Source of the DNA: Candidatus Saccharimonadota bacterium
GTDB lineage: Bacteria > Patescibacteriota > Saccharimonadia > Saccharimonadales > JACOTW01
NCBI GenBank assembly: GCA_016178135.1
Contig: JACOTW010000001.1
Span: 228-64,227 of the forward strand
DNA: 64,000 bases
Reading direction: 5' to 3'
Below the pieces are notes generated by a model that was not told where the DNA came from, searched no databases, and worked only from the letters and a program-made list of their open reading frames with translations. A program made the translations under genes and the position numbers. The first letter of the stretch is position 1. Each line of letters opens with the position of its first letter. Positions 1 through 46,622 of this stretch are shown here, one piece after another.

Positions 1-51
1 GGCATCCGCCGCATAAAAGCAGTCTTACAATAGGGCTTGACCAAAATCCTC

Positions 52-60
52 GGGGGGGGG
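52..60 (+). repeat. G9 homopolymer upstream of the tail-fibre-like/SGNH gene
   Basis: CGGGGGGGGG at 51-60, between a TTGACC (37-42) and AT-rich -10-like hexamers (71-76, 99-104). Confidence 0.8.
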
Positions 61-106
61 TAAACTCACATATAAAGGATAAGCATAAAAGAGGTGTATA
101 TATTCC

Positions 107-1768
107 ATGGCGAGACTTCCAACTCCTGGTTCAGATAATGGTACTTGGGGAGGCATCCTAAACGACTTCCTCTCCCAATCCCATAACAGTGACGGGTCAT
201 TAAAATTGAGTGCAGTCAGCGCAAGCGGTGGTGCGGCTACCGATGCTTCTGTTGTCCACAACACGGGCGCTGAAACCATTGCAGGAGTCAAAACATTCTC
301 CTCTGCACCTGTGGTACCATCTGCCTCATTCCCGGAAAGCGCTGTCACGAACCTGACGACTAACTTATCTTCCAAGATAGACAAGTCCACAGCCACGACA
401 AAGGGAGACTTGTTTGCTGCTACTACAGCCAGTACCATTGTCCGTGTGGGTGTCGGGACGGATGGACAGATCCTGACGGCAGACAACGCTTCAAGCCCTG
501 GTGTGAAGTGGGCAGCAGCACCGACACCCCCGGTAACGAGTGTTGTTGGCCAGACGGGTGTGATTACGGGGGCGCAGATCGCGGGGGATGGAGCGCTTAC
601 CGGTACGTATGTGCCAAAAGCACGCGCAACATTTCCATCGGGGCGTATTGTCGGATGGGCTGGTGCCTCAACCACCAACGGATCGTCCTCATCTAATACA
701 ACCGTATATTCTTTCCGTGTGGCAGTAAATAAAATTTCTGGATCAGCACGAGTTGCAGGTAACAGTATTAATGGCGGCGTACCGAGTGAGACTTCAACGC
801 AGATCACCGCACGCATTGGAGGTATCATAACCTCTGGTGCGCAGATAGTAGTGATTTGCCCCGACTTTGGTACAAACAGCGCGGGCTCAAGTATTACCCT
901 GGCTCAATTTCAAACCGACATAATTACCTGTGTCACTACTGCCCGGGCAAGTGGCGTACCGGTTATTATTTGCACTACTTTACCACGGGGATCAAGCGCT
1001 GCAGCATCAATACACATCCTCCTGCAAACCTATAATCTCTGGCTACGCGCATGGGCACCGGTAAATGGCGTACCACTGGCTGATACCTTCGGTGCGGTAG
1101 TAGACCGCACGACTGGTTATCTGGCGGCAGCATATGACTCCGGCGATGGTACGCATCCGAATGATGCAGGACACTTAGCAATAGCACAGGCTATCGCGCC
1201 TCAGATCAACGCACTCTATACACTGCCGCCGTGGCCAGTACAATCTCCTGAGCCAGGTATCGGGCTGATCGCCAACCCGCTCATCGACGGGGCGGGCCCA
1301 AATACGTGGACAAACCTCAACGGCTCCTTCGCTAGCCCTACCTTCAGCATCGTGAATTCATCCGGGTCGGACGGGCTGCCGGCTGGACGCTGGCAGGCGA
1401 TGCAACTCGACGGCGTCGGCACTGGCGGCAGTGGCTACCGAAATATGACCAAAGGGATCAGCTCCTCCGGCTGGGCCGTGGGTGACACGTTGCTCTGCTG
1501 CTCATACGTCAAATGCTCAGACGCGAACGGGGTAGGACTCAAACTTCAGTGGCTCAACTCCAGCACCGCCGGTATTGGCATAATACTCGAGACATCTCTG
1601 ACAGGGACACCCGGTCCGATCATGTCGAAATTTGTCATCCCGGCGGGGACGACGGGCCTTTATCTCGCGCTGTCTGGCAGCGCCACCAGCGCCCAGAACG
1701 TCACCTTTTATATCGGCGCTACGCAGGTTTATAATTTGACGACACTTGGCCTTGCCTCGGCATTTTAA
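107..1768 (+). CDS. Tail-fibre-like N-terminal region fused to an SGNH/GDSL-type hydrolase and a beta-rich C-terminal (binding-like) domain; compositionally foreign
   Basis: 553-aa ORF. The N-terminal strings LPTPGSDNGTWGGILNDFL, GAETIAGVKTF and KGDLFAATTASTIVRVGVGTDGQILTAD resemble actinobacterial/actinophage tail-fibre proteins. Central AGNSI, GTN and DGTHPNDAGH blocks fit SGNH hydrolases. The region is visibly far more GC-rich than the rest of the window. Confidence 0.6.
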   Translation: MARLPTPGSDNGTWGGILNDFLSQSHNSDGSLKLSAVSASGGAATDASVVHNTGAETIAGVKTFSSAPVVPSASFPESAVTNLTTNLSSKIDKSTATTKGDLFAATTASTIVRVGVGTDGQILTADNASSPGVKWAAAPTPPVTSVVGQTGVITGAQIAGDGALTGTYVPKARATFPSGRIVGWAGASTTNGSSSSNTTVYSFRVAVNKISGSARVAGNSINGGVPSETSTQITARIGGIITSGAQIVVICPDFGTNSAGSSITLAQFQTDIITCVTTARASGVPVIICTTLPRGSSAAASIHILLQTYNLWLRAWAPVNGVPLADTFGAVVDRTTGYLAAAYDSGDGTHPNDAGHLAIAQAIAPQINALYTLPPWPVQSPEPGIGLIANPLIDGAGPNTWTNLNGSFASPTFSIVNSSGSDGLPAGRWQAMQLDGVGTGGSGYRNMTKGISSSGWAVGDTLLCCSYVKCSDANGVGLKLQWLNSSTAGIGIILETSLTGTPGPIMSKFVIPAGTTGLYLALSGSATSAQNVTFYIGATQVYNLTTLGLASAF

Positions 1769-1812
1769 CTAAGTATATGGTTCATTTGCCACGCTCAATT
1801 TGAAGTCAATTT

Positions 1813-2112
1813 GGAGGACGTTCCTCTAACAGAGAAAGATGATTGTTAGTTTCGCTGACTGTCCAGAGGTTTCTAGAGGACAGTCCTCTAACAGGGAGGG
1901 GATTATTGCGTACTAGTGATCAGTAAGTTCATATTTGATACTTGCAAGTAGGTTACGATGCTGTTCATAGTCGTGTAAGAATAACTTATAGTCCTCGGCA
2001 CCGCTGAATAATTCTAAAATTCTGGCCGGCTTTATCCATAATTCAACTATTTATCATCTGTTAGAAACCAGTCCTCTAGAACCCCTCTAGAACACTGTCC
2101 TCTAGAATCCCT
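1813..2112. repeat. Field of GTCCTCTA(G/A)A repeats (direct and inverted) at the boundary of the GC-rich segment
   Basis: TTCCTCTAACAG (~1821), TCTAGAGGAC (~1872), GTCCTCTAACAG (~1883), GTCCTCTAGAAC (~2071), CCCTCTAGAAC (~2083) and GTCCTCTAGAAT (~2097). Confidence 0.7.
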
Positions 2113-2171
2113 ATATCCTTAGATACGTCGACGGAGAGCAGACAGGTTTTGGACACTTTGGCGCGGAGTGA

Positions 2172-2197
2172 ATTGGTTATTTTGTTTTGGAATGGCT
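2172..2197 (+). repeat. PE-C right-end fragment
   Basis: TTGGTTATTTTGTTTTGGAATGGCTA. Confidence 0.6.
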
Positions 2198-2291
2198 ATA
2201 TAGTGACGCCGAGAAAATATAAACAGTTTGCAGTCAGTTAGACTACGATCTTTTACTGTATGAAAGTGCGAAAGTCCTATAAAGTAAACAT

Positions 2292-2597
2292 ATGACTCAA
2301 ACAATAGCTAATGGTGTAGTACATGACGTACCAGCTGATTTACTAAAAGCTCTGCTATCTGACGAATCTGCCCTGGAAAGGTGGGAAGATCTAACACCGT
2401 TGTCACGAAACGAGTGGATTTGTTGGACTATTACAGTTAAACAACCCAAAACACGCATAAATCACATCGAGAGAACCATCACGGAGCTACGGGAGGGCAA
2501 ACGTCGCCCTTGTTGCTGGGCTGGCTGCCCTCACCGTACAGACAAGCCAATAAACTCAACTCAAAAATGGGTATTTAGTAAGCAATCGAGCAAATAG
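2292..2597 (+). CDS. YdeI/OmpD-associated family protein
   Basis: LTPLSRNEWICWTITVKQPKTRINHIERTITELREGKRRPCCWAGCPHR matches the family signature. The promoter-like motif AAGTCCTATAAA lies 8 nt upstream of the ATG. Confidence 0.7.
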   Translation: MTQTIANGVVHDVPADLLKALLSDESALERWEDLTPLSRNEWICWTITVKQPKTRINHIERTITELREGKRRPCCWAGCPHRTDKPINSTQKWVFSKQSSK

Positions 2598-2616
2598 GGT
2601 CTGCTACAATAAAACT

Positions 2617-2823
2617 ATGCAAAAAATAGCTACAAAAGTTTTCATCTGTGCCTCTGTATTATTCGGTATCTTGGGAATATTTATGGCAATGTCCGGTATA
2701 GATCCAGATAATAATGGCAGCACACTACAGCAAATTGTTGGGAAGCTTTTTCTGAGCACTATTTTCGTTATTTTGCCATCGTTTGCACTTAGCATTGCAG
2801 GCAAATATTTAAAAAGTAAGTAG
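2617..2823 (+). CDS. Small membrane protein (two predicted TM helices)
   Basis: 68-aa hydrophobic ORF in the same orientation as, and tightly spaced with, its neighbours. No recognisable family. Confidence 0.4.
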   Translation: MQKIATKVFICASVLFGILGIFMAMSGIDPDNNGSTLQQIVGKLFLSTIFVILPSFALSIAGKYLKSK

Positions 2824-2830
2824 GACGACT

Positions 2831-3289
2831 ATGAAACGAATTACACCTAACCTATGGTTTGACGGCAATGCCAAAGAGGCAGTGGATTTTTATGTATCTG
2901 TTTTCCCTAAGAGTAAGATAACTTCGACAATTTATTATCCAAAAACCAAAGAAGAAGGCTTGGCTGATTTTCAACTAGAGTTGGCAGGCAAAGCTTTGAC
3001 TATTGAGTTTGAACTAAGCGGCAACCCCTTTGTGGCTATCAACGCTGGCCCAGAGTTTAAGTTCAATGAGTCCGTGTCTTTTTCTATACCATGTAAAGAC
3101 CAGGACGAGATTGACTACTACTGGGGGAAACTTTCAAAAGTACCAGAAAGCGAGCAATGTGGTTGGTGCAAAGACCAGTATGGGCTGAGCTGGCAAATAG
3201 TACCGGAAAACATGGAAGAGTTGATGAAGCGTCCAAATGCCTACGCCAAGATGATGGAAATGCATAAGCTCGTTATTGCCGACTTTTAA
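2831..3289 (+). CDS. VOC-superfamily PhnB-like protein (3-demethylubiquinone-9 3-methyltransferase-like domain)
   Basis: N-terminus MKRITPNLWFDGNAKEAVDFYVSVF and C-terminal CGWCKDQYGLSWQIVP are typical of this family. Confidence 0.75.
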   Translation: MKRITPNLWFDGNAKEAVDFYVSVFPKSKITSTIYYPKTKEEGLADFQLELAGKALTIEFELSGNPFVAINAGPEFKFNESVSFSIPCKDQDEIDYYWGKLSKVPESEQCGWCKDQYGLSWQIVPENMEELMKRPNAYAKMMEMHKLVIADF

Positions 3290-3493
3290 TATGATGTTTT
3301 GGTATACTGGATTTATGGAGAATAAGGTTCGACCTTGAAAGGTGTCAGTCGCTGCAATCTACCTTACGTCTGCTAGTTCGTACTTAATACTTTCCAACAT
3401 TGCTTTATGGTTCTCGTAGTCTTCCAGGGGTGCTTATAAATATACAAGGTTTACCGTATAATATTTCGCATGAGCGATGATCAATTCACTTTA

Positions 3494-3651
3494 CTGGACT
3501 TGCGCAAAGCTCCCCCATCCCCAGACCAACTAATCTCGGCTGGCGGCGGTTTGCCTTCTATCGATGTAGCTAAAGCTACCTTTCCTTCAGTCAAACCACT
3601 CTCAGCTCGAGCTGATTTGCCCTGGGAACGGGTGATTTCGCCTAAGTCCAG
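3494..3651 (+). mobile_element. PE-A palindromic MITE-like element, full copy (gamma subtype)
   Basis: TIRs CTGGACTTGCGCAAA and a mismatched right TIR TTTCGCCTAAGTCCAG flank a near-palindromic core. Flanks are TTTA/TAAA. Confidence 0.85.
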
Positions 3652-3702
3652 TAAAGTACCAGAAAAAAGCGGGCCCACCCTAGTTACTGTGAGCAAAGAC
3701 AC

Positions 3703-4266
3703 ATGAACTCGCAACAAGTTGTTGATCAGGCTAAGGCGAAATTTACCCAAGCCCAGAGTCATTTTCTGGAAGAGTTGAAGAAGCTACGTACCGGACGCGC
3801 TCATCCAAGCATGCTTGATGGAGTAATGATAGAAGCCTACGGCACGGAAATGCCCCTAATCCAGGTGGGGACAGTTAGCACGCCGGAGCCACAGCTACTG
3901 CAAATTACGCCGTTTGATCCAAACAACCTGCAAGCTATATCGACGGCCATTCGCAATACTCAAAATTTGGGTATGAACCCAATGGACGATGGGCGGGTAG
4001 TCCGCGTACCCATTCCGCCGTTGAACGAAGAACGTAGGCATGATTTCGTCAAGCTACTCGGAACCAGAGTAGAGGATTGCATGGTTAGTTTGCGTAATAT
4101 TCGCCACGATGCAATTAGAGATATTGACCAGGCCAAAAAAGCTAAACTAATTGGCGAAGATGACGCTAAACGTCTGGAAAAACAAATCGATGATGCTATG
4201 AGTCAGGCCAAAAAAGAAGTTGAGGTGCAGGCCAAAACCAAAGAACAAGAAATCACGACCCTATAA
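3703..4266 (+). CDS. frr: Ribosome recycling factor
   Basis: 187 aa with full-length RRF-like sequence (LRTGRAHPSMLDGVMIEAYG, RVPIPPLNEERR). Confidence 0.95.
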   Translation: MNSQQVVDQAKAKFTQAQSHFLEELKKLRTGRAHPSMLDGVMIEAYGTEMPLIQVGTVSTPEPQLLQITPFDPNNLQAISTAIRNTQNLGMNPMDDGRVVRVPIPPLNEERRHDFVKLLGTRVEDCMVSLRNIRHDAIRDIDQAKKAKLIGEDDAKRLEKQIDDAMSQAKKEVEVQAKTKEQEITTL

Positions 4267-4596
4267 CCTACAAAGTTTTCCCATCCACTGATCCCGCGCC
4301 AATCTTACTAAATTCGACATATGTAGAATTTACTAAGATTGGCTGGAATTACGTGAAATCGTTTGGGGTAAGCTAGTTACAACCGTTGATAGTTGTGGTC
4401 ATTGATAAGTTGCCCGTTGATAAGTTGTAGCTGTTGATAGCTTTATTCTTCCCATCTGAACAGTCTACCTTCTATCTGAACAGTCTATCTTTCCGGTAGT
4501 GTTCGGGTTCGGATTAGAGTTCAGAGTTGCAGCCTGTTGTGTTACCGCAGTCTATTGCCTACGAAAAATTATAAAAGTCCTATATAATGAATGAAC

Positions 4597-5292
4597 ATGT
4601 CAGAGACTAACACCGTTCCGGTTCACCTCGGATTGATACTCGATGGTAATCGCCGCTGGGCAAAGGCCAATGGTCTGCCGGCTTTTGAAGGTCATCGTAG
4701 AGGCTATGAAAACCTAAAAACCATAGGCAAGACCGCCATTAAACGTGGTGTTAAGTATATTTCAGCCTATGTATTTTCTACAGAAAATTGGCAGCGTAGT
4801 AAGGAAGAAGTGGACTATCTCATGAAACTTCTTTTGTGGGTTGCCAAACACGAAGTTGCGGAGATGAATAAAGACGGCATACGCGTAAGGTTCATGGGTA
4901 GTCGGGATAGATTGAGTGCCAAGATTTTAAGAGCCATAGACGAAGCTGAAATTAAAACCAAAGATAACGTCAACGGCACTCTAGCCTTATGTTTGAATTA
5001 TGGTGGTCGGCAGGAGATAGTCGAAGCTTTTCAGAAAATGGCTGCTAACGATATCGCCACTAATGCTATAAACGAACAAACGATAGCCGATAATTTATAC
5101 CAACCAGACATTCCTCCAGTCGATCTGATTATCAGAACTTCTGGCGAACAGCGTATTAGTAATTTTATGTTATGGCGGGCGGCTTATAGCGAACTTTATT
5201 TTACTGATGTTCACTGGCCAGATTTTAATGAAGCAGAACTAGATAAGGCGCTTGAGGAATACGCTGCGCGCCACAGAAGGTATGGTAAGTAG
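4597..5292 (+). CDS. uppS: Undecaprenyl-diphosphate synthase
   Basis: HLGLILDGNRRWAKANGL and IRTSGEQRISNFMLWRAAYSELYF motifs. The ORF opens at 4591, but a TATAAT at 4583-4588 favours a leaderless ATG at 4597. Confidence 0.9.
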   Translation: MSETNTVPVHLGLILDGNRRWAKANGLPAFEGHRRGYENLKTIGKTAIKRGVKYISAYVFSTENWQRSKEEVDYLMKLLLWVAKHEVAEMNKDGIRVRFMGSRDRLSAKILRAIDEAEIKTKDNVNGTLALCLNYGGRQEIVEAFQKMAANDIATNAINEQTIADNLYQPDIPPVDLIIRTSGEQRISNFMLWRAAYSELYFTDVHWPDFNEAELDKALEEYAARHRRYGK

Positions 5293-6429
5293 ATGCACAT
5301 ATTACTATTGATTTTGGGCTTAATATTATTTATCAGCTTGGTTGTCGTGCATGAACTGGGGCATTTTATTGTGGCGCGACGCAATGGGGTAGAGGTAGAA
5401 GAATTTGGGATTTTCTTCCCCCCTCGTATCTGGAAAAAACGTATCAAAAGCAAAAAGGGCGATTATGACTTCACGATCAACGCACTACCTTTGGGCGGCT
5501 TTGTAAAACTAAAGGGTGAGCTTGATTCTGATACGTCGCCAGGTAGTTTTGGGGCAGCAAAACTATGGCCAAAGGTAAAAATCATGCTAGCTGGTGTAAC
5601 TATGAATTTACTCGCGGCTTTTGTGATTCTGACTTTTACGGCTTTAGTGGGTATTCCGAAACTTATTGATAAGCAGTTTACGGTAAATAGTGATACTCGA
5701 CTAACGAAGCATGCGATACTGATTGGTTATGTTGATCCGCATTCTCCAGCCCAGCAGGCCGGCTTACGTGTTCGTGATCAATTAATTAGTATAGGACTTT
5801 CGGGACAGAGCCAAAATACGATCAATACTCCGGAAAGCTTGCCAAAACTTACTAGGCTATACGCAGGTAAAGACGTAGAGGTTAGGTATCAGCGCAACGA
5901 TAAAATATCAAGTGCCATTTTGCGCCTACGTTCTACACAAGAAGTTGATAATAGTAAAAATACTAACGAACCCAAGGGTTATTTAGGGGTTTCGCCGACA
6001 GAATACGCCCTAAGGCGATCTACTTGGTCGGCGCCAATTGTTGCCGGCGGGCTGATCGAGCAGCTTACCGAATTGACATTTCAAGGTCTCGGCACGATTA
6101 TTGCTAATCTGTTTAGGGGTAATGTTCATGAAGCATCGCAGCAAGTTTCTGGCCCGGTCGGTATTTACGTTATTTTAAGAGACGGCAGTTTGCTTGGCTA
6201 TCAATTTATATTGATGATTATTGCTATAATTTCACTCACGCTTGCGATTATGAACGTTCTGCCGATTCCAGCGCTTGACGGTGGTAGATTGTTTGTAACA
6301 CTTGCTTTTAGAATATCTAAAAAACCTCTTAGTCAGCGTACCGAAGAACTAATTCATGGCACTGGCTTTGTCTTGCTGCTGGCTTTGTTCGCGCTTATTA
6401 CATTTGTAGATGTCGGGCGATTTTTTTAA
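5293..6429 (+). CDS. rseP: Site-2 (M50) zinc metalloprotease RseP family
   Basis: HELGHF zinc motif in the first TM helix, a central PDZ-like segment and a C-terminal LPIPALDGG motif. Confidence 0.9.
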   Translation: MHILLLILGLILFISLVVVHELGHFIVARRNGVEVEEFGIFFPPRIWKKRIKSKKGDYDFTINALPLGGFVKLKGELDSDTSPGSFGAAKLWPKVKIMLAGVTMNLLAAFVILTFTALVGIPKLIDKQFTVNSDTRLTKHAILIGYVDPHSPAQQAGLRVRDQLISIGLSGQSQNTINTPESLPKLTRLYAGKDVEVRYQRNDKISSAILRLRSTQEVDNSKNTNEPKGYLGVSPTEYALRRSTWSAPIVAGGLIEQLTELTFQGLGTIIANLFRGNVHEASQQVSGPVGIYVILRDGSLLGYQFILMIIAIISLTLAIMNVLPIPALDGGRLFVTLAFRISKKPLSQRTEELIHGTGFVLLLALFALITFVDVGRFF

Positions 6430-6433
6430 TTGT

Positions 6434-7237
6434 ATGAAAAAAACTTTGAGAAAATTATATCTGCGTAAGTCGAGTTTATCCGACTTACGCAAAACTATCT
6501 CATTCCCAGATCAATTCAATCCAGCGCTGGTCATTTTAGTTACTATTGGCGTTTATTTCGCTGCTCAAATTATCGGCGGTACATTAATTTCGATTTACCC
6601 AATTGTTCGAAGATGGGATAGGGTTCAAACTATGGATTGGCTAAGCAATTCATTGGTAGCGCAATTTTTTACAGTGGTTTTTATTTACGGATCAATATTG
6701 TTTTTGCTCCGTGTTTTTTTCAAAAAATACGGTGGTGGATTTCGGACTATAGGATTCAAGAAACCAAAATGGACGGATATGGGTTTTGCTTTGGCGGGCT
6801 ACGCCGCTTACATCGTGGCTTACATTGTTATTATAATATTAATTGGCCTGTTTATACCCGAGCTTAATCTTAACCAAAAACAGCAACTTGGGTTTTCTAC
6901 CGCCACAACTGGACCTGGCCTAATACTGATATTTATTAGTCTGGTAGTATTGCCGCCACTGGTTGAAGAATTATTAATGCGTGGTTTTTTGTACACCGGG
7001 CTAAGGGCTAGACTTCATAAAATGCCGTCGGCCATAATAACCAGTATTGTGTTTGCTGTTGGTCATCTACAGTGGGGCTCGGGTAACGCATTGCTCTGGA
7101 CTGCCGCAATAGACACTTTTATTTTGTCTATGGTGCTTGTTTATTTACGCGAACGAACCGGTGGCCTAGGGGCTTCGATTGGCTTACATATGATTAAAAA
7201 CTGCGTAGCGTTCGCGAGTTTGTTTATTTTGCGGTAG
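6434..7237 (+). CDS. CPBP family intramembrane glutamic endopeptidase (CAAX protease-like)
   Basis: Polytopic membrane protein with the EELLMRGF motif and later conserved H residues (FAVGH, IGLHMIKN). Confidence 0.8.
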   Translation: MKKTLRKLYLRKSSLSDLRKTISFPDQFNPALVILVTIGVYFAAQIIGGTLISIYPIVRRWDRVQTMDWLSNSLVAQFFTVVFIYGSILFLLRVFFKKYGGGFRTIGFKKPKWTDMGFALAGYAAYIVAYIVIIILIGLFIPELNLNQKQQLGFSTATTGPGLILIFISLVVLPPLVEELLMRGFLYTGLRARLHKMPSAIITSIVFAVGHLQWGSGNALLWTAAIDTFILSMVLVYLRERTGGLGASIGLHMIKNCVAFASLFILR

Positions 7238-7246
7238 AATTACCCC

Positions 7247-8668
7247 ATGTCCGATAAAAAACAACTACCACCTAAAACTGGCGATTTATCTGATTGGTAT
7301 ACTACGATTATTCAGTTGGCCGATTTAGCCGATTATGGTCCAGCAAAAGGTACAATGATAATTAAGCCTTATGGCTATGCTATTTGGGAGATGGTACAAC
7401 AGGCCATGAATCCTATCATTAAAGCTCGCGGTGTTGGTAACGCCTATTTTCCTTTATTGATTCCAATGAGCTTGCTTGAGAAAGAGGCTAGTCATGTTGA
7501 GGGGTTCGCTCCGGAGTTGGCTGTGGTTACTCATGGGGGTGGAGAAAAATTACAAGAGCCACTCGCCGTACGCCCAACTAGTGAAACGATTATGTATAAC
7601 TCGTTTGCCAAATGGGTTCAGTCGTGGCGGGATTTACCGATTTTAATGAATCAATGGAACAACGTTGTGCGTTGGGAAAAACGAACAATGCCATTTTTGC
7701 GTACTAGTGAATTTCTATGGCAAGAGGGACACACGGCACACGCTACCCATAAAGAAGCGATTGAGATCCAGAAATGGGCCATGGACATGTACGCTAAAAT
7801 CTACCAAGACTATTTTGCTATTGATGGCTACGTTGGGCTTAAGTCATCAACCGAGCGGTTTGCTGGTGCCGATACAACCTTGACCTACGAGACACTTATG
7901 CCAAGTGGTAAAGCCTTGCAGTCATGTACTTCACATGATCTGGGGCAGAATTTTTCTAAACCTTTTGAAATAACATTTCAGGACAACCAAGGCAATGATA
8001 GTTTTGTTTGGCAGACAAGCTGGGGTTTTAGCACCAGATCAATTGGTGGGCTGATCCTGGCTCATGGCGATGATAATGGCCTGCGTCTACCTCCGAAATT
8101 AGCACCAGTACAGGTTGTCATTGTACCTGTAAGGGTAGAGCCAGAGATAATGACCCATTGCCAAGAATTATTAGACAAACTCACGAAAGTTGGCATGCGA
8201 GTAGTTATAGATGACAGAGATGATGAAAGTTTTGGTTTTAGACTTAATAAGTGGGAGGTTAAAGGCACACCAATCATCTTAAAAATAGGTCAAAAAGAAG
8301 TTTCAGAAAGTGTTATTACGGTCAAAAGGCGCTTTGATGGAAAAGAAGACCAAGTTTCTACTAAAGAAGCAGCCGAAAAACTTCAGCAGTTACTTGAATC
8401 AATTCAGGTCATGATGTTTAAGGCCTCCCAGGATTTCATAGCAAGTAATACCCGAGAAGCCAAGGACTACGAGGAGTTCAAAAAGATATTGGCCGAGCAC
8501 AAAGGGTTCATCAGGGTCAATTGGAGTGATAATCCAGAAGTTGAAAAGCGAATTAAAGACGAAACCAAGGCAACCAGCCGTTGTTTGATCGCGGAAGATC
8601 AGCCAGGGCGGAACTTTGTAACTGGGGAACCTACTTCGCAGGTTTGGCTTTTTGCACAAAGTTATTGA
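7247..8668 (+). CDS. proS: Prolyl-tRNA synthetase, archaeal/eukaryote-like type
   Basis: 473 aa with class II aaRS motifs (RPTSET, FLRTSEFLWQEGHTAH, SWGFSTR). TAGAAT lies 6 nt upstream of the ATG. Confidence 0.95.
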   Translation: MSDKKQLPPKTGDLSDWYTTIIQLADLADYGPAKGTMIIKPYGYAIWEMVQQAMNPIIKARGVGNAYFPLLIPMSLLEKEASHVEGFAPELAVVTHGGGEKLQEPLAVRPTSETIMYNSFAKWVQSWRDLPILMNQWNNVVRWEKRTMPFLRTSEFLWQEGHTAHATHKEAIEIQKWAMDMYAKIYQDYFAIDGYVGLKSSTERFAGADTTLTYETLMPSGKALQSCTSHDLGQNFSKPFEITFQDNQGNDSFVWQTSWGFSTRSIGGLILAHGDDNGLRLPPKLAPVQVVIVPVRVEPEIMTHCQELLDKLTKVGMRVVIDDRDDESFGFRLNKWEVKGTPIILKIGQKEVSESVITVKRRFDGKEDQVSTKEAAEKLQQLLESIQVMMFKASQDFIASNTREAKDYEEFKKILAEHKGFIRVNWSDNPEVEKRIKDETKATSRCLIAEDQPGRNFVTGEPTSQVWLFAQSY

Positions 8669-8732
8669 TAACTGTTTTCGCACGACTTGAAGCAAGCAAG
8701 ATATCAATGGTAAAGTGCGAAATTCGTGTATA

Positions 8733-8932
8733 CTGGACCTGTCGCAAAATCGTCCGTTCCCAGAGTGAATTATCTCGCGCGAAAACTGTTTTGTCTGAAG
8801 GAGAGGTAGCCTTAGCTACATTGAGAGAAGAAAAACCGTTTGTCTTCGACTCTGAGGTGAGCCCTCAGGCTCAGACTCGAAGAGTAGCCGATAGAATTCG
8901 ATCTGGGGATGGAGGAGTTTGCGTAAATCCAG
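8733..8932 (-). mobile_element. PE-A element (beta subtype), reverse orientation, carrying a nested PE-S hairpin
   Basis: TIRs CTGGACCTGTCGCAAA/TTTGCGTAAATCCAG with a perfect 4-bp TSD (TATA/TATA). It is the only full copy in reverse orientation. Confidence 0.85.
8843..8883. repeat. PE-S 41-42-bp hairpin element nested in PE-A
   Basis: TCTTCGACTCTGAG...CTCAGACTCGAAGA. The same insert recurs at 33971-34012 and at about 63970 to the window end, at the same position within PE-A. Confidence 0.7.
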
Positions 8933-16597: not shown

Positions 16598-17263
16598 ATG
16601 CCAGAAGAACATGATAATTCATTATTCCATGAAAGAAGTGCCAACACTTACTCTAGCGCTCCAACACCAGCAGTTTACCCAGAGCCCTTGGAGGGCATGG
16701 TTGCTCCAACGCCGGACTTTACTACTACTAAGCCGGTAACTCAAAGCGTGTCTGACGAGGCCCCTAAAACATTATCCATAACGGATACTCAATCAAACGG
16801 AGATCCCGTACCTGTAGTACGTGTGTTGAGTGTGCGTGGGGTAGAATATTTGATGATGTCATTTGCTCTGTGGCTAGGGGCAGGTTCATTAATCTGGGTG
16901 TTACTTGCCCTGATTAATGGTTACGGTAGCACAACCACACTAGCAATGCCTGGTGCGACAATGATTGTGAGCGTGCCAGTCTTCGCCTTTTTCTTTTTGC
17001 GACTAAGAAAACAGGAGCTGGTCAACTCATCTCTACGTTATGAGCCTTCAAAGCGGCGCCTTACTCAAATAACTCAATTTGTAGCATTTATTACTTGTAT
17101 GCTTAATACTGTTACATTTGTGTATCTCATGATTGCTAAAGTTAGCGGTCAAGATGGTATTGTTCTATGGAAAGCCTTCGCAAACCTATTGATTGTTCTC
17201 ATAGTGGTTGGCGGGATTTTGGCCTATTACTGGGCAGATGAACATCGCACGATAAGGGACTGA
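16598..17263 (+). CDS. Membrane protein, unknown function
   Basis: 221 aa with a Pro/Thr-rich N-terminus followed by about 4 TM helices. AAGGAAG Shine-Dalgarno upstream. Confidence 0.5.
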   Translation: MPEEHDNSLFHERSANTYSSAPTPAVYPEPLEGMVAPTPDFTTTKPVTQSVSDEAPKTLSITDTQSNGDPVPVVRVLSVRGVEYLMMSFALWLGAGSLIWVLLALINGYGSTTTLAMPGATMIVSVPVFAFFFLRLRKQELVNSSLRYEPSKRRLTQITQFVAFITCMLNTVTFVYLMIAKVSGQDGIVLWKAFANLLIVLIVVGGILAYYWADEHRTIRD

Positions 17264-34875: not shown

Positions 34876-36087
34876 TTATTTTCTTATTAATACTATTAGT
34901 TCACGGGCTACAACTTGATCCGGTCTATGATAAACAAGATCTGCATTACTCACATGAACAAAACTTGTCCGAGTATACCCCAATTCCTCAATAAGTTCAA
35001 GTACGGGGAGGTGCTTGAAGTTTTTTTCTGTGTTCCAGGCTGGCACCGCGATGCATAAACGGGTTCCAGGGCTAAGTTGCCGGGCTAGATTTTTGAGGAA
35101 TTTTTTGATTATGGTGTTCACATCGTGTATGACTCCGCTAAGCACATCAGCGGTTGGTTGGGCAGAGAAGGGGCGGCCAAGATATGTTTCGCAAGCTACA
35201 GTGTCGATTGGTTTAACCCATTCGTTTTGTGTCGCGTCGCCTATAGAAACACGAAATTCTTTCTGGGTAGGCTGAAGCTTATCCATAAGCCACTCCAGAT
35301 TGGTTTGAGAATATTCAAACATACGCCTGTCAATATCCGTGCCGTAGGCTCGGTAGCCCATTATAAGAGCCTCCTGTAAGATCACGCCTGTTCCACAAAA
35401 AGGATCCAGTATAGTGGAATCGTGGGTGGTTTTTGGGCTACAAGCAGGATCGACGGGCTCGATTAGGCCAACAGCTAGGTTGATGATAATTTGGGCTAGT
35501 TTGGGCGGTAACATGCCGACTTTGGCGTCACGTTTTGGTCGGCCACGGTCGCGCAGAGTGTATGATTCAATATCCTGAACAGCTATGCTTTGGGCGATCA
35601 AGGTTTTGGAACCATGTTTGACGAATATTAGCTCCCAGCCCAGCGGACCAGTGAGTTGATTATGCAGGACCTGGGCGCTACTAAGGGCCGTTTCAACGTT
35701 TGGTATAACTCGAACCGAACGACCACTGGCTCTGATTACTTTTTTGAGAGTCAGACCAGTTGCGGCAATCTGCTGCGGTCTCATTGAAAATCCATAGACA
35801 CTTAATCCAAGCCGCATTTTGCCTTCAGGCATATAGTCCAGATGTTGAGGCGTGGTTTCTGCTAGAAATTTTTCAACATGGCGCCAGTTAACGGTGTCTA
35901 AAATGGTTAGTAGTTTGCAAAACTTTACTGTACCGCCTAGGCGAGTGAAATCAATTTGCGCCGGCTCAATATTAAGTAACGCGCCATGTTCGCCAATAGG
36001 TTGAATATTATCACCACCAAAAAGGCTTTCAAGCTCGGCTATTCCAAGTGCTGGCTGCCTTCCCAAAATACAAAATGCCTGATTCAT
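34876..36087 (-). CDS. THUMP-like/class I SAM-dependent RNA (guanine-N2-type) methyltransferase
   Basis: DPFCGTGVILQEA motif and the UPF0020-type layout. The true start is MNQAFCILG at 36087; the 70-aa upstream extension in the ORF track is a PE-A translation. Confidence 0.7.
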   Translation of the reverse strand: MNQAFCILGRQPALGIAELESLFGGDNIQPIGEHGALLNIEPAQIDFTRLGGTVKFCKLLTILDTVNWRHVEKFLAETTPQHLDYMPEGKMRLGLSVYGFSMRPQQIAATGLTLKKVIRASGRSVRVIPNVETALSSAQVLHNQLTGPLGWELIFVKHGSKTLIAQSIAVQDIESYTLRDRGRPKRDAKVGMLPPKLAQIIINLAVGLIEPVDPACSPKTTHDSTILDPFCGTGVILQEALIMGYRAYGTDIDRRMFEYSQTNLEWLMDKLQPTQKEFRVSIGDATQNEWVKPIDTVACETYLGRPFSAQPTADVLSGVIHDVNTIIKKFLKNLARQLSPGTRLCIAVPAWNTEKNFKHLPVLELIEELGYTRTSFVHVSNADLVYHRPDQVVARELIVLIRK

Positions 36088-42574: not shown

Positions 42575-43915
42575 ATGAGTAAAAAAGTAAAGATGGAAGA
42601 TATTGTCAGCCTTTGCAAGCGGCGTGGATTTATTTATCAGGGTTCGGAAATTTATGGTGGGCTGGCGGGGACGTGGGATTATGGTCCTCTGGGTGTTGCG
42701 CTAAAGCGTAATATTATGAATTTGTGGTGGAAGATGTTCGTAGAAGACCGCGACGATATGTATGGAGTAGATGCGGCGATTTTAATGAACCAAAAAGTCT
42801 GGCAGGCCAGTGGTCATGTCGATACCTTTACTGACCCATTGGTGGAATGTAGTAATTGCCACGAAAGATTTAGGCATGATCAAGTTCCGGATATTATGGA
42901 ACGAGGTTTGCAGGATGCCCAAACTAGATGCCCAAACTGTGGTAAGCCTGGAGTTCTGTCGGAACCCCGTCAGTTTAATATGATGTTTAAGACCAATATT
43001 GGGCCGGTGACAGATGATTCATCCACGAGCTATTTACGGCCGGAGACAGCACAGGGGATTTTTACTAATTTTAAGAACGTGGTGGATAGTTTTTATCCGG
43101 ATATACCGTTTGGTGTGGCACAAATGGGCAAGGCGTTTAGGAACGAGATAAGTCCGCGTGATTTTGTGTTCCGTAGTCGTGAGTTTGAGCAAATGGAGAT
43201 TGAATATTTTGTTGCGCCAGATAAGTGGGAAGTTGCTTTTGATAAATGGGTGAAAGATATTCAGGTGTTTTTGGAAGCGGTGGGGGTACCAAAAGAAAAT
43301 GTACATCAAGTAGAAGTTCCACCAGCTGATCGTGCTCACTACAGCAAACGTACCGTTGATTTTGAGTTTGATTTTCCGCACAAACGCGACGAGTTGTTGG
43401 GGCTGGCATACCGCACGGATTTTGATCTTCAAAACATCCAGCGGGTAAGTGGCAGGAGTATGGAATATCGTCCAAAAGAGGGCGGAGATGCGTTCATACC
43501 GCATGTCATAGAGCCGTCCTTTGGGGTGGAGCGTGCCATCATGGCAGTACTGGTAAGTGCCTTTACAGAAGACGAGGTAAACGGCGAAAAGCGTGTTTAT
43601 TTGAAACTCCCTGCACATTTAGCCCCAGTCAAAGTGGCTGTTAGCCCATTGCTCAAAAACAAGCCGGAATTGGTAGAGAAGGCTAGAGAAGTGTATGGCA
43701 TGCTGAAGAAAGAACTTGGCAACGTCATGTGGGATGACAACGGCAACATTGGCAAACGCTATCGTCGTCAAGACGAAATTGGTACCCCATACTGCGTTGT
43801 TATAGATTTCCAAACTCTAGAAGACAACACCGTAACAGTCAGAAACCGAGACACCACCAAACAAGATCGTGTTCCCTCCGAAGAGTTAATCGATAAACTT
43901 GGCTATAGGCATTAA
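42575..43915 (+). CDS. glyQS: Glycyl-tRNA synthetase (dimeric class II type)
   Basis: RRGFIYQGSEIYGGLAGTWDYGPLG N-terminus. TATAAT lies 10 nt upstream of the ATG at 42575. Confidence 0.95.
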   Translation: MSKKVKMEDIVSLCKRRGFIYQGSEIYGGLAGTWDYGPLGVALKRNIMNLWWKMFVEDRDDMYGVDAAILMNQKVWQASGHVDTFTDPLVECSNCHERFRHDQVPDIMERGLQDAQTRCPNCGKPGVLSEPRQFNMMFKTNIGPVTDDSSTSYLRPETAQGIFTNFKNVVDSFYPDIPFGVAQMGKAFRNEISPRDFVFRSREFEQMEIEYFVAPDKWEVAFDKWVKDIQVFLEAVGVPKENVHQVEVPPADRAHYSKRTVDFEFDFPHKRDELLGLAYRTDFDLQNIQRVSGRSMEYRPKEGGDAFIPHVIEPSFGVERAIMAVLVSAFTEDEVNGEKRVYLKLPAHLAPVKVAVSPLLKNKPELVEKAREVYGMLKKELGNVMWDDNGNIGKRYRRQDEIGTPYCVVIDFQTLEDNTVTVRNRDTTKQDRVPSEELIDKLGYRH

Positions 43916-43916
43916 A

Positions 43917-43990
43917 CTGGACCCCTTGCAAAATAACTCCGTAACCCACCCAGCAGGTGCCCTTTTTGCCTCAAACCGAGCCAAAGCCTT
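43917..43990 (+). repeat. Degenerate PE-A-like fragment abutting the glyQS stop
   Basis: CTGGACCCCTTGCAAAATAACTCC... follows TAAA, which contains the stop codon. Only the left end is recognisable. Confidence 0.3.
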
Positions 43991-44028
43991 CGCCCCGTAA
44001 CAGATGTTATGCTACGATCGGCAAGAAT

Positions 44029-44795: not shown

Positions 44796-46622
44796 TTATT
44801 TGACGCGTTTGCGTTTATTGGGGTCGAGTTCTTTTTTACGTAGCCGTAGAGATTTTGGGGTCACTTCAAGTAACTCGTCATTTTCTATAAAATCCAGACA
44901 TTCTTCAAGGCTAAAAATAGTTGGCGGTGTTAGCTGAACCACGCCGTCAGATGATGAACTACGCATATTAGTCAAGTGTTTGGCCTTGCAGACGTTTATT
45001 TCCATATCTTCCTGACGCTTATTGAGCCCAATTATTTGTCCAGCATAAACTTTTATAGCTGGTCCTACAAATACATTGCCCCGATCTTCGGCGGTCTGTA
45101 GGGAGTAGGGAGTTGTTATGCCAGTTTCAAAAGCAATCAAAACCCCATTTCGCAATTGCCCCAACGGTGGTGCTAATGGGTGCGACCCAATAGCAAGGCT
45201 GTTCATGATTATGGTGCCTTTGGTGTTGGTTAGTAAAATGTTGCGCAATCCCAAAAGGGCTCGGGTAGGTAGTTCGTAAACGAGTTTAGTAACTCCTTTG
45301 GGGCTGGCGAATTGTTCCTTTAGAGTTGCACGGCGCATCCCAAGTTCCATCTGAACAGTCCCGACGTGTTCAGCGGGTACTTCTATAATTAGTTCTTCCA
45401 ACGGTTCCATCGTAATGCCGTTTTCCTGGTGTGTTACTACCTGCGGTCGGCCAACTTCAAATTCAAAACCTTCACGGCGCATGGTTTCTATTAGTACGCT
45501 CAAATGTAGTTCTCCTCGACCAGAAACCAAAAAGCCAATACCATCTTCTTCTACCCGCAATCCAACATTTGTTTCCAGCTCTTTTTGTAAACGTTCGCTA
45601 ATCTGGCGGCTGGTTGTAAACTCGCCCTCTGTGCCCTTGAAGGGGCTGGTGTTGGGGCCGAGATAGATTTTAAGAGTGGGGGCTTCTACCTCTAATACTG
45701 GTAACGCCTCTGGACTTGTCGCATCGGCAACAGTATCGCCAATTTGCGCTTCAGTGATCCCCGTAAGTTGCACAATATCTCCGGCGACTCCACCTGGAAC
45801 TTCGAATTTACTTAGCCCATGACTCATGTAGACATTGTCAACCCTAACCTTAACCATTGTGTTGTCTTTTTTGCACAGCGTAACTTGATCTCCAGGCTTA
45901 ACTTGACCGCGTGTTATGCGCCCGATGGCATATTTGCCTCTAAAACTGTCCCATGCCAGAGCCGTAACTAACATTTGAAATGGTTTGTTAGATTCAATTT
46001 GCGGTGCTGGGATATGACTGATAATAGCATCAAAAATAACTTCTAAATTTGCATCTTCATCTGGATTGACGGGTGGTGTTACCCAGGCTTTACCGCTACG
46101 ACCAACAGCATAATAAACAGGGTAGTGTAGTTGATCTTCATGGACTGCCAGCTCTAGGAATAAATCTGCCAATTCGTCTTCTACTTCCTTGATACGGGCA
46201 GCAGACTTGTCTATTTTATTGATAATAACGATTGGTTTGAGCTCGCTAGCCAACGCTTTGCTAAGCACGAATTTGGTTTGTGGCATAGGACCTTCCTGGG
46301 CATCAACAATCAAAATACAGCCATCAGCCATATTGAGTGTACGTTCTACCTCGCCAGAAAAGTCAGCATGACCAGGCGTATCAATGATATTTATTCGGTA
46401 ATCGTTGTGTTGCACGGCCGTAACTTTGGCGGTGATAGTTATGCCTCGTTCACGTTCCTGATCACCACTATCCATTATAAGTTCCTGGCTCATCTCGGCT
46501 TGATTATCACGGAAGGTTTGCGATTGCTTAAGTAGGCCATCTACCAGCGTTGTTTTGCCATGGTCAACGTGGGCAATGATAGCAATATTTCGGATTTTGG
46601 TGGGGTCTTGTGTTTGGGTCAT
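44796..46622 (-). CDS. typA: Translational GTPase TypA/BipA
   Basis: AHVDHGKTT, DTPGH and NKID G-motifs. 608 aa. Confidence 0.95.
   Translation of the reverse strand: MTQTQDPTKIRNIAIIAHVDHGKTTLVDGLLKQSQTFRDNQAEMSQELIMDSGDQERERGITITAKVTAVQHNDYRINIIDTPGHADFSGEVERTLNMADGCILIVDAQEGPMPQTKFVLSKALASELKPIVIINKIDKSAARIKEVEDELADLFLELAVHEDQLHYPVYYAVGRSGKAWVTPPVNPDEDANLEVIFDAIISHIPAPQIESNKPFQMLVTALAWDSFRGKYAIGRITRGQVKPGDQVTLCKKDNTMVKVRVDNVYMSHGLSKFEVPGGVAGDIVQLTGITEAQIGDTVADATSPEALPVLEVEAPTLKIYLGPNTSPFKGTEGEFTTSRQISERLQKELETNVGLRVEEDGIGFLVSGRGELHLSVLIETMRREGFEFEVGRPQVVTHQENGITMEPLEELIIEVPAEHVGTVQMELGMRRATLKEQFASPKGVTKLVYELPTRALLGLRNILLTNTKGTIIMNSLAIGSHPLAPPLGQLRNGVLIAFETGITTPYSLQTAEDRGNVFVGPAIKVYAGQIIGLNKRQEDMEINVCKAKHLTNMRSSSSDGVVQLTPPTIFSLEECLDFIENDELLEVTPKSLRLRKKELDPNKRKRVK

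Follow-up and report, generated by a model that had tools for sequence, protein, structure and literature searches.

The 64,000-nucleotide stretch of DNA analysed here (the window; Candidatus Saccharimonadota bacterium, contig JACOTW010000001.1, positions 228 to 64,227) opens with an intact gene (107..1768, + strand) that is predicted to encode a modular fibre-esterase of 553 amino acids (aa), as judged from the list of open reading frames (ORFs), Pfam, PHROG and a homology search. The product is identical to a protein named simply 'SGNH/GDSL hydrolase family protein' by NCBI and assigned to Candidatus Saccharibacteria bacterium; the genome is a Candidatus Saccharibacteria metagenome-assembled genome, in keeping with the Saccharibacteria-like organism supposed by the original prediction, which was made from the sequence. 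The protein consists of five modules in a row: an N-terminal head, a BppL_N-type repeat, a neck, an SGNH esterase and a CBM4-like beta-sandwich. We interpret it as a phage-derived mosaic fibre-esterase that stands alone in a Saccharibacterium chromosome and acts on a host-surface glycan, and give this statement as a whole a probability of roughly 0.55. That the gene is a phage-derived, mosaic, orphan fibre-esterase gene is highly probable, and for a role on the surface of the host our confidence falls slightly short of even.

The head occupies aa 1-40 (MARLPTPGSDNGTWGGILNDFLSQSHNSDGSLK; 107..226, + strand) and was delimited by profile matches. Among homologs the consensus of this MARLP head is M-A/S-R-L-P-x-P-G-x-D-x-G-x-W-G-x-x-L-N-D-F-L...H-N-x-D-G-x-L-K, in which P5, W14, G15, L18, N19, D29 and G30 are invariant. 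Pfam has no match over aa 1-44 of the protein. The 45-aa head, scanned against 1.84 billion representative proteins at E≤1e-3, matched 5,196 representative clusters; among the matches listed, the head starts within the first few residues in almost all, and the proteins range from 46 to 1,655 aa. When 75 head-bearing proteins were annotated with Pfam, 37 had DUF5907 repeats and 25 had BppL_N, and the enzyme-type domains were pectate-lyase-like (10), Beta_helix (7), NosD (3), SGNH (8) and polysaccharide deacetylase (1). The recognisable enzyme domains of these proteins are thus all predicted to be glycan-active. A homology search with the 41-aa head alone was uninformative, with two candidates only, and its profile version returned only proteins of 33-79 aa. 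Some mini-proteins of 68-75 aa (P0321, P0327 and similar ones) consist of the MARLP head and a 26-aa 'Phage tail tip domain' (PF24243) only, and one named short head match comes from Mycolicibacterium agri.

A scan with exact peptides had suggested that the head is absent from viral contigs. This was overturned by a degenerate head profile, which matched 13 IMG/VR contigs with a guanine plus cytosine (GC) content of 0.40-0.69, and by Streptomyces phages. On one of the viral contigs (L140, siphophage-like), genes for scaffold, major head, major tail and tape measure are followed by that of a head-bearing tailspike. Among 50,697 cultured phage genomes, the head was found only in Streptomyces phages (Alone3, LuckySocke, GiJojo, pSt2308 and BRock), and gp41 of Alone3 combines it with a pectate-lyase fold. 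The occurrence in Streptomyces phages supports the actinophage flavour that had been ascribed to the N-terminus, and by its sequence relationships the ~40-aa head appears to be a phage tail-protein module. These cultured-phage relatives come from ~115-kb Streptomyces phages and are labelled 'hypothetical'. The Alone3 gene for gp41 (L152:7001-8398) sits in a tRNA-array accessory region beside a peptidase, outside the tail module.

In homologs, the head precedes one or more BppL_N-type repeats. The BppL_N motif of the window protein covers aa 45-68 (VVHNTGAETIAGVKTF...; 239..310, + strand; PF18338, 31.4 bits with a cut-off of 25.8) and lies in a fibre repeat unit that reaches ~aa 91. A search of the PDB with an N-terminal profile returned only the receptor-binding proteins of TP901-1/Tuc2009, over residues 27-59 and with marginal E-values (0.007-0.015). 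The neck, delimited by homolog alignments, follows at aa 95-171 (KGDLFAAT...VGTDGQILTAD...GVKWA...PVTSVVGQTG...TYVPK; 389..619, + strand); its consensus in homologs is KGDLLAAT...VGTDGQILTAD...GVKWA...PVTSVVGQTG...ALTSTY, after which come interchangeable C-terminal domains. Two phage fibres, P0026 and P0032, contain an almost verbatim copy of the fibre repeat, and the neck recurs in P0026 and in the phage fibre P0005. Fibres with both repeat and neck are encoded on real phage contigs, one with holin, RusA and methylase genes (L136) and one with sheath, tube and baseplate genes (L137), and their heads differ from the MARLP head. The monomer model made with AlphaFold2 (AF2) is poor for aa 1-173, as expected of a fibre modelled as a monomer. 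Together, these similarities point to phage tail-fibre modules throughout the N-terminal 170 residues. On the myovirus-like contig L137 (positions 4033-8923), the BppL_N fibre gene is followed two genes downstream by that of a 516-aa SGNH protein and then by an IS605 OrfB/TnpB-like (Cas12f-like) gene; the sheath, tube and baseplate genes lie further downstream of the latter.

The SGNH/GDSL esterase domain spans aa 176-370 (632..1216, + strand). Pfam Lipase_GDSL_2 matches it over aa 186-356 (3.6e-15), and PHROG 6102, 'lipase', covers aa 169-487 (4e-30). The catalytic and oxyanion residues are S188 (nt 668-670), G223/G224, N257 (nt 875-877), D347 (nt 1145-1147) and H350 (nt 1154-1156), and in an alignment of 18 homologs the nearly invariant columns are G186, S188, G192, N257, D347, H350 and P351. 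Nucleophile block I reads GWAGAS188 and is the counterpart of GDSIT in relatives; block II is SINGG223-224, as read from the alignment; block III is FGTN257 and block V is D347-G-T-H350-P. All of the motifs quoted in the original prediction are present (GAETIAGVKTF at aa 54-64, KGDLFAAT...VGTDGQILTAD at aa 99-126, GNS at aa 218-220, GTN at aa 255-257 and DGTHPN at aa 347-352), and the catalytic Ser, Asp and His are indeed conserved among the 18 homologs. The SGNH blocks that it named need one correction: the catalytic set is there, but GNS (within GNSINGG) belongs to block II and the nucleophile block is GWAGAS188.

The structural models agree with the predicted enzyme. AF2 gives aa 175-370 an alpha/beta fold with a predicted local distance difference test (pLDDT) score >90, and Foldseek superposes it on solved SGNH esterases with template modelling (TM) scores of 0.7-0.87 (target-normalised). 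The PDB entries that match this catalytic domain are sialate O-acetylesterases, acetyl-xylan and acetyl-mannan esterases, and polyvinyl-alcohol (PVA) esterase. With its complete Ser-Asp-His and oxyanion set, the protein is predicted to be an SGNH esterase. The C-terminal beta-sandwich (aa ~400-553; 1304..1765, + strand) was recognized with AF2 and Foldseek. The model is all-beta over aa ~400-545 (pLDDT 81-92), and its structural matches are 1k42 (CBM4-2), 3jxs (XG34) and 8ic1/8hhv, with E-values of 4e-7 to 8e-7; Foldseek also pairs it with the beta-sandwich of the Microbacterium endo-arabinanase EndoMA1. The modelled domain thus has a CBM4-like fold and is a putative glycan binder. NCBIfam offers no specific family for the esterase protein; Pfam, AF2 and Foldseek together recover the tail-fibre-like N-terminus, SGNH esterase and beta-rich C-terminal domain that had been proposed.

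The gene also stands out by its base composition, as had been claimed for the opening ~1.8 kb. Its GC content is 0.549, compared with 0.427 in the remaining 62 kb, and tops that of all 1662-bp windows (mean 0.429, standard deviation 0.0196). The GC-rich stretch coincides with the ORF: positions 1-106 have a GC content of 0.44 and the 523-bp spacer that follows the gene (1769-2291) one of 0.40. Alanine, glycine, serine and threonine together make up 47% of the protein versus 26% in other genes, and a GC content of 0.499 is expected from the amino acids of the protein and the window's own codon table. The GC content at third codon positions (GC3) is 0.532 where 0.397 is expected, an offset of +0.135; in the 45 other ORFs the offset is 0.001 ± 0.034, so the anticipated deviation in codon usage is significant (z=3.9). 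Amino-acid composition accounts for about half of the GC excess and codon choice for the rest, and therefore only about half of it points to a foreign origin; the GC excess had previously been taken whole as a foreign mark. The codon deviation that goes beyond amino-acid content sits mainly in aa 51-175 and aa 376-553.

An antisense ORF of 267 aa (25..828, - strand) exists, as reported, and is a compositional shadow. It was rejected as a gene because ORFs of this kind recur across from homologs at 15 family loci and because only the sense strand shows domains or homology. Elsewhere in the window there are mild GC highs (0.47-0.48) at ~35001-36000, 43001-44000 and 45001-46000, >2 standard deviations over the mean and far below the esterase gene, and mild lows (~0.37-0.38) at 17001, 19501, 27001 and 58501.

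Along the gene, GC3 changes stepwise, from 0.42 in the head (aa 1-75) to 0.52-0.58 in the repeat and neck, 0.32-0.48 in the SGNH domain and 0.64-0.76 from ~aa 376 to the end, the last step falling at the domain linker (~aa 370-380). Taken as whole domains, the SGNH esterase has a native GC3 of 0.415 and the C-terminal domain, at 0.69, is the most foreign segment. The nearest relatives also change along the protein. Residues 44-171 are 85% identical to P0009, which continues with an unrelated domain and another type of SGNH; aa ~168-553 are 59% identical overall to P0002 (73% in the SGNH domain and 66% in the beta-sandwich), with the similarity beginning at a common S-T-Y-V-P-K junction. The gene is thus an evolutionary mosaic, in which head and SGNH domain have host codons and the neck, and especially the C-terminal domain, a higher-GC signature. 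The SGNH domain has drifted fully to host composition and the beta-sandwich has not, from which we infer that the segments differ in residence time, with recombination inside the gene. Third positions relative to P0002 are saturated in the SGNH domain and beta-sandwich alike; a recent transfer from a P0002-like donor was rejected on this ground.

P0002 is encoded on a 48-kb contig of 65% GC (L020). Upstream of its gene are those of a 1,457-aa protein without a Pfam match, which from its length and position is probably the tape measure, an NlpC/P60 protein and an SLT-type minor tail protein; downstream are a capsid-like gene and an amidase. The minor tail and capsid proteins of this contig are 38-42% identical to those of Streptomyces phages, e.g. 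FlowerPower and Immanuel3. The other close relative of the esterase and C-terminal unit, P0003, lies on a contig of 74% GC (L021) with unannotated neighbours. Among viral fold models (BFVD), the best matches to the two-domain unit are actinophage 'esterases', with Microbacterium phage Shocker at 3.7e-29 and others in Rhodococcus phage ReqiPine5 (gp21) and the Gordonia phages Clown and Lambo. By these comparisons, the esterase and CBM unit is closest to the tail-region gene on this Streptomyces-phage-like contig, L020, and is also similar to the 'esterases' of cultured actinophages. SGNH and C-terminal peptides had no match in IMG/VR.

The original prediction is supported in that the closest relatives of the enzyme unit are on high-GC contigs (L020, in a phage tail/lysis context, and L021) and its best structural matches among actinophage esterases. 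Of the acquisition from the host or its phage that it proposed, the link of the enzyme unit to actinophage-like genes is upheld; the single foreign block is not, as the gene is a mosaic with a native-GC3 head and SGNH domain. Nor does the idea of a one-off import hold, given a head family of 5,196 representative clusters whose examined chromosomal members stand alone and have native GC3 on average.

A GTDB scan seeded with peptides of this protein returned 18 loci, nearly all of them in Saccharibacteria or other Patescibacteria. Relatives with the MARLP head and the full architecture (P0006 and P0008) are 37-39% identical to the window protein and occur in cellular contexts. The neighbours of these and other head-bearing genes include GluRS; CysRS and RecR (on a 310-kb contig); giant PA14 and Kelch proteins (830-kb contig); SmpB and PKD proteins (412-kb contig); and acetate kinase and phosphoketolase. 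No phage structural genes were found near six other head-bearing genes with annotated neighbours. For the 121 ORFs that neighbour such genes at 11 loci, the 25 most recurrent PHROG families include none of tail or head type, a tally that leaves out families matched by one ORF, so that isolated phage genes could escape it; the recurrent families are of housekeeping type (clamp loader, elongation factor, RF-1 and ABC). We found no recurring partner gene beside the head-bearing genes in the family loci.

In composition, the head-defined family is native on average: in 23 family loci the genes differ from their flanks by +0.047 in GC and -0.016 in GC3. The window gene, with +0.124 in GC and +0.13 in GC3, is an outlier in its own family. 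In the Patescibacteria chromosome loci that were examined, head-bearing genes stand alone and mostly have native codons. Two loci contain tandem pairs, L024:2676-6050, with two SGNH-type members of 493 and 610 aa side by side, and L006:3178-5560, which suggests local expansion of the family.

A promoter scan identified a promoter-like element, TTGACC-(18 nt)-TAAACT, upstream of the gene (37..66, + strand). Its spacer ends in a run of nine G residues (G9, 52-60), giving the layout TTGACC-AAAATCCTC-GGGGGGGGG-TAAACT, and G9 is the sole run of seven or more G or C residues in the 64 kb (~0.08 expected). A paralog in another genome (L007, 595-625), whose gene lies downstream of an MsrA-like gene, has TTGACA-CTCCCACC-G10-TACACT at an equal distance to the start codon. 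Only the -35 element, the G tract, the -10 element and the Shine-Dalgarno sequence are kept between the two; in the window the latter is AAGAGGT (89..95, + strand), 12 nt before the ATG, and GAGG occupies the same position in L007. Slipped-strand phase-variable promoters classically have a homopolymer in the spacer between -35 and -10 elements, and the G9/G10 tract suggests that the gene is a candidate for phase variation. The tract is G9 in both assemblies that contain the gene, and the poly-G promoter pattern had no match in IMG/VR. As a contingency locus it would be of a kind for which we found no report in the literature on Saccharibacteria or their phylum.

The exact protein is encoded on two contigs, one of 34 kb (GCA_016196105.1) and one of 96.5 kb, each time at the edge. 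Over 11.8 kb the two assemblies disagree at 10 positions, none of which touches the esterase gene or its junctions. All 10 differences fall within 74 bp of the window (2994-3067, inside the PhnB-like ORF at 2831-3289), a divergent patch that could reflect either recombination or strain variation. Only 243 bp upstream of the window are available in any assembly (contig L001), with native GC content, and neither they nor the window contain visible phage structural genes or an integrase. The window starts inside a 46-aa tRNA_SAD (AlaRS/AlaX-type) fragment (L001:136-276, PF07973; FEICGGPHV...GIRRIKAVLQ*), of which it contains the final 10 codons and the stop (1..33, + strand). This fragment begins 108 bp before the window and is interrupted upstream by a stop codon in the palindrome TAGAGGAACGTCCTC; no intact copy of tRNA_SAD exists within the 64-kb window. 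Further upstream, an ORF that starts MPSRNVTKEQAPDSYYHVYARGSNRQK... runs off the contig edge (L001:83-1, - strand, ~160-243 bp before the window start). Its sequence resembles the N-terminus of REP-associated/IS200-like transposases, which would fit the palindromes, but this lead is unsupported, as Pfam, NCBIfam and plasmid tblastn gave no match for its 27-28 residues. No recombinase, integrase or transposase was identified at the flanks, and the L001 upstream edge sequence had no match in IMG/VR.

Several palindromes surround the gene. A palindromic 15-mer, GAGGACGTTCCTCTA, lies 46 bp past the esterase stop codon (1814..1828) and is the exact reverse complement of TAGAGGAACGTCCTC, which is 109-123 bp before the window start (L001:121-135), so that the 15-bp inverted pair brackets the tRNA_SAD fragment and the esterase gene. 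No further copy of this 15-mer exists in the 138 fetched loci or in the rest of the 64 kb. A cluster of palindromes and half-sites follows at 1868..2113, comprising TAGAGGACAGTCCTCTA at 1874-1890 and GTCCTCTAGAA at 2071 and 2097, 27-nt inverted arms (1868-1894 and 2058-2084) and 26-nt tandem repeats (2062-2113). The palindromes form a family, GAGGA[A/C]N1-2[G/T]TCCTC, often lengthened to TAGAGGAC.GTCCTCTA, that occurs only around the esterase gene; related palindromes were absent elsewhere in the 64 kb and from 137 other loci. The spacer is more stably folded than its shuffles (z=-2.5), and no Rfam family matched positions 1-4600. The palindromes resemble rearrangement scars or elements like repetitive extragenic palindromes (REP) or miniature inverted-repeat transposable elements (MITE), and could also be an operator or recombination site.

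Downstream, the 523-bp spacer leads to the genes for OmdA and a 68-aa membrane protein, then to a PhnB-like gene and to frr, uppS and rseP, so that the esterase gene has housekeeping genes for neighbours. Specifically, positions 2292-3702 contain the OmdA-like gene (101 aa), the 68-aa membrane protein, the PhnB/3-demethylubiquinone-methyltransferase-like gene (152 aa) and a 78-aa ORF. The block frr-uppS-rseP-rce1-proS-greA-aspS is kept in relatives, which were found via frr and are distant (frr 55-76% identical), and nothing upstream of frr is shared with them. Compared with these distant relatives, positions 1-3700, esterase gene included, appear to be a non-conserved stretch. No tRNA genes and no PADLOC defence families were found in the window.

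We hypothesize that the modules of the fibre-esterase were swapped by recombination at the conserved neck junction (S/T-T-Y), in a pool of phages shared by Saccharibacteria and their actinobacterial hosts, and that the gene has since been kept by the cell. The protein would assemble as a fibre, probably a trimer by analogy with BppL. Its beta-sandwich may bind cell-wall polysaccharide, from which the SGNH domain would strip O-acyl, most likely O-acetyl, groups in the manner of phage tailspike esterases. The likeliest target would be the glycan coat of the partner (host) bacterium, in attachment or surface remodelling, and expression might be turned on and off through changes in G9 length in the promoter spacer. 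The hosts known for cultured Saccharibacteria belong to the Actinobacteria. A shared phage pool would offer a route of acquisition: TM7x is adsorbed to by a prophage of its host (PMC13578794), and spacers of Actinobacteria co-target phages predicted for Saccharibacteria (PMC10746230). In TM7x binding, host cell-wall glycans matter and the close-range adhesins are unidentified (PMC11623550), evidence that fits the proposed role on a glycan coat. We favour a cellular role because streamlined ~1-Mb genomes keep the family intact, with native codons and conserved heads.

Several observations weigh against this interpretation. Synonymous sites are saturated relative to the nearest phage homolog, so that no recent donor is identified. 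The enrichment of the head in Patescibacteria is biased, as the scan was seeded with the protein's own peptides, and there are heads in a Mycolicibacterium genome and on phage contigs with 40-69% GC as well. By eye, with no predictor run, no signal peptide, membrane anchor or cell-wall sorting motif was apparent, which leaves surface exposure unexplained. Finally, the gene is at a contig edge in both assemblies, and a prophage or mobile element may lie immediately upstream.

This last point bears on an alternative that we consider unlikely, namely that a prophage, decaying or not, or another mobile element lies beyond the contig break with this as its last, tail-fibre gene, which would serve a phage of the Saccharibacterium (or of both partners) and not the cell. 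Upstream of the gene, neither assembly continues for more than 350 bp, and the truncated AlaRS-type fragment and the bracketing 15-bp perfect inverted repeat are scars of a type typical of insertions. Real phage genomes do have head-bearing genes beside the tape measure gene, and phages shared by Saccharibacteria and Actinobacteria have been proposed (PMC10746230). However, a promoter-like element of its own precedes the gene and the genes after it are not of phage type, and what lies between it and the contig edge is a fragment of a cellular gene, not a tail gene. Phage structural genes are also missing beside six other head genes and are not recurrent among the 121 neighbour ORFs of 11 further loci, and the native average GC3 of the family indicates long residence in strongly streamlined genomes.

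If the gene serves the cell, the esterase might instead deacylate the Saccharibacterium's own surface glycan under phase-variable control, as receptor editing or superinfection exclusion against phages, a possibility that we rate as decidedly improbable. The G9/G10 promoter tract fits such a pattern, and other bacteria offer well-established cases in which a homopolymer controls a surface-modifying gene and with it the sensitivity to phages. The homologous esterase of Footloose is encoded in a lysis cassette and so acts on the envelope of the encoding cell, and a host-derived phage binds intrinsic surface features of TM7x (PMC13578794). A fibre-type N-terminus of head, BppL_N and neck would, however, be needless for editing of the cell's own wall; export poses the same problem as in the explanation we prefer, and there is no acetyltransferase partner or glycan-synthesis gene nearby. 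Two further explanations are essentially excluded. An ordinary native lipase or esterase, secreted or cytoplasmic, with high GC from its amino acids and without transfer or phage link, would account for the roughly half of the GC excess that is compositional, for family members that are ~5 GC points above their flanks without a GC3 shift, and for the plain NCBI name. It does not account for a GC3 that is 0.13 higher than expected (z=3.9) and as high as 0.69 in the C-terminal domain, for N-terminal modules common to phage tail proteins, for an enzyme unit whose closest relatives are phage genes, or for the absence of the stretch at the syntenic position in (distant) relatives. The edge position and odd composition could also arise from an assembly chimera, with a high-GC phage or actinobacterial piece misjoined to the end of a Saccharibacteria contig. 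This was rejected, since assemblies that differ at 10 positions elsewhere share identical junctions on both sides of the gene; in addition, L001 reaches 243 bp further upstream with native GC, and the high-GC3 segment is internal, between native-GC3 SGNH sequence and the native spacer.

How ultrasmall epibionts choose and hold their hosts is an open question, in which type IV pili and host cell-wall glycans have been implicated (PMC11623550). The gene and its large unannotated family are testable candidates for close-range adhesins, that is, phage-type glycan-binding and glycan-modifying fibres in streamlined genomes. As a broader and tentative proposal, which we regard as rather doubtful, Patescibacteria may have domesticated the receptor-binding proteins of host phages as standalone genes, keeping the scaffold, swapping glycan-active tips (esterase, lyase, deacetylase) with a shared phage pool and making some of them phase-variable; such proteins could be used as close-range fibres for host recognition or remodelling, with the head docking on an epibiont structure. 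The epibiont would then borrow the keys that its host's phages evolved, and if the gene is a prophage remnant only, the finding is an ordinary one. The gene is also a clear trace of genes passing between actinophage-like elements and a Saccharibacterium, which fits contact between host phages and epibionts (PMC13578794, PMC10746230). The ~40-aa head is a recognisable domain that marks >5,000 protein clusters, and the neck junction is a natural point for module swaps.

SGNH-bearing phage fibres and actinophage esterases were already known, and the gene was generically annotated. New are the chimeric architecture alone in a Saccharibacterium chromosome, the very large head-defined family, the stepwise intragenic composition and the poly-G promoter; in the literature we found no description of the chimeric orphan gene, the family, the stepwise composition or the promoter.

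Among known systems, two-domain carbohydrate esterases (acetyl-mannan esterase CEX 6HFZ, acetyl-xylan esterase Axe2 and sialate O-acetylesterases) have the same catalytic fold with an appended beta-sandwich, and by analogy this likeness suggests a carbohydrate O-acetyl ester as the substrate. They are only 15-24% identical to the window protein, and are free secreted or periplasmic enzymes without fibre modules, so that their substrate specificity is not transferable. The actinophage 'esterases' of PHROG 6102 (Microbacterium phages Footloose gp27, Shocker gp30 and Jacko gp52; Rhodococcus phages E3 gp84 and ReqiPine5 gp21; Gordonia phages Clown and Lambo) share the unit of SGNH domain and C-terminal beta-sandwich. 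Their sequence identity to it is low (26-29% by tblastn over aa 222-550), and they lack the MARLP head, BppL_N and neck. In Footloose the gene comes after endolysin and holin-like membrane genes, and in Shocker it lies among hydrolase and virion genes. A far closer relative than these cultured-phage esterases is P0002 (59% overall), which comes only from the uncultured Streptomyces-phage-like contig.

The SGNH tailspikes of coliphage G7C (gp63.1), Vi-antigen-specific phages and Pectobacterium phage PP99 have the same design of N-terminal adaptor, fibre or neck, and SGNH esterase, and their esterases de-O-acetylate the surface polysaccharide receptor. The BFVD fold matches include the PP99 tail spike and a Bacillus phage 'tail fiber esterase'. 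The likeness shown is one of design: these tailspikes are virion parts encoded in tail modules, whereas the window gene stands alone in a cellular chromosome, and the CBM4-like tip and MARLP head are, as far as tested, features of the window protein and not of the G7C, Vi and PP99 tailspikes. With BppL of TP901-1/Tuc2009 (PF18338; PDB 2F0C, 3EJC and 4V96), the window protein has the motif VVHxTGxETIxGxKTF in common, but only these ~25-30 residues; the head domain, neck and receptor-binding tip are unrelated. The L140 tailspike, gp41 of Alone3 and the 'collagen triple helix repeat-containing protein' of BRock have heads 49-67% identical over aa 1-35. They carry a pectate-lyase-like beta-helix and not an SGNH domain with a CBM at the C-terminus, yet they follow the same plan as the window protein, a head and then a glycan-active domain.

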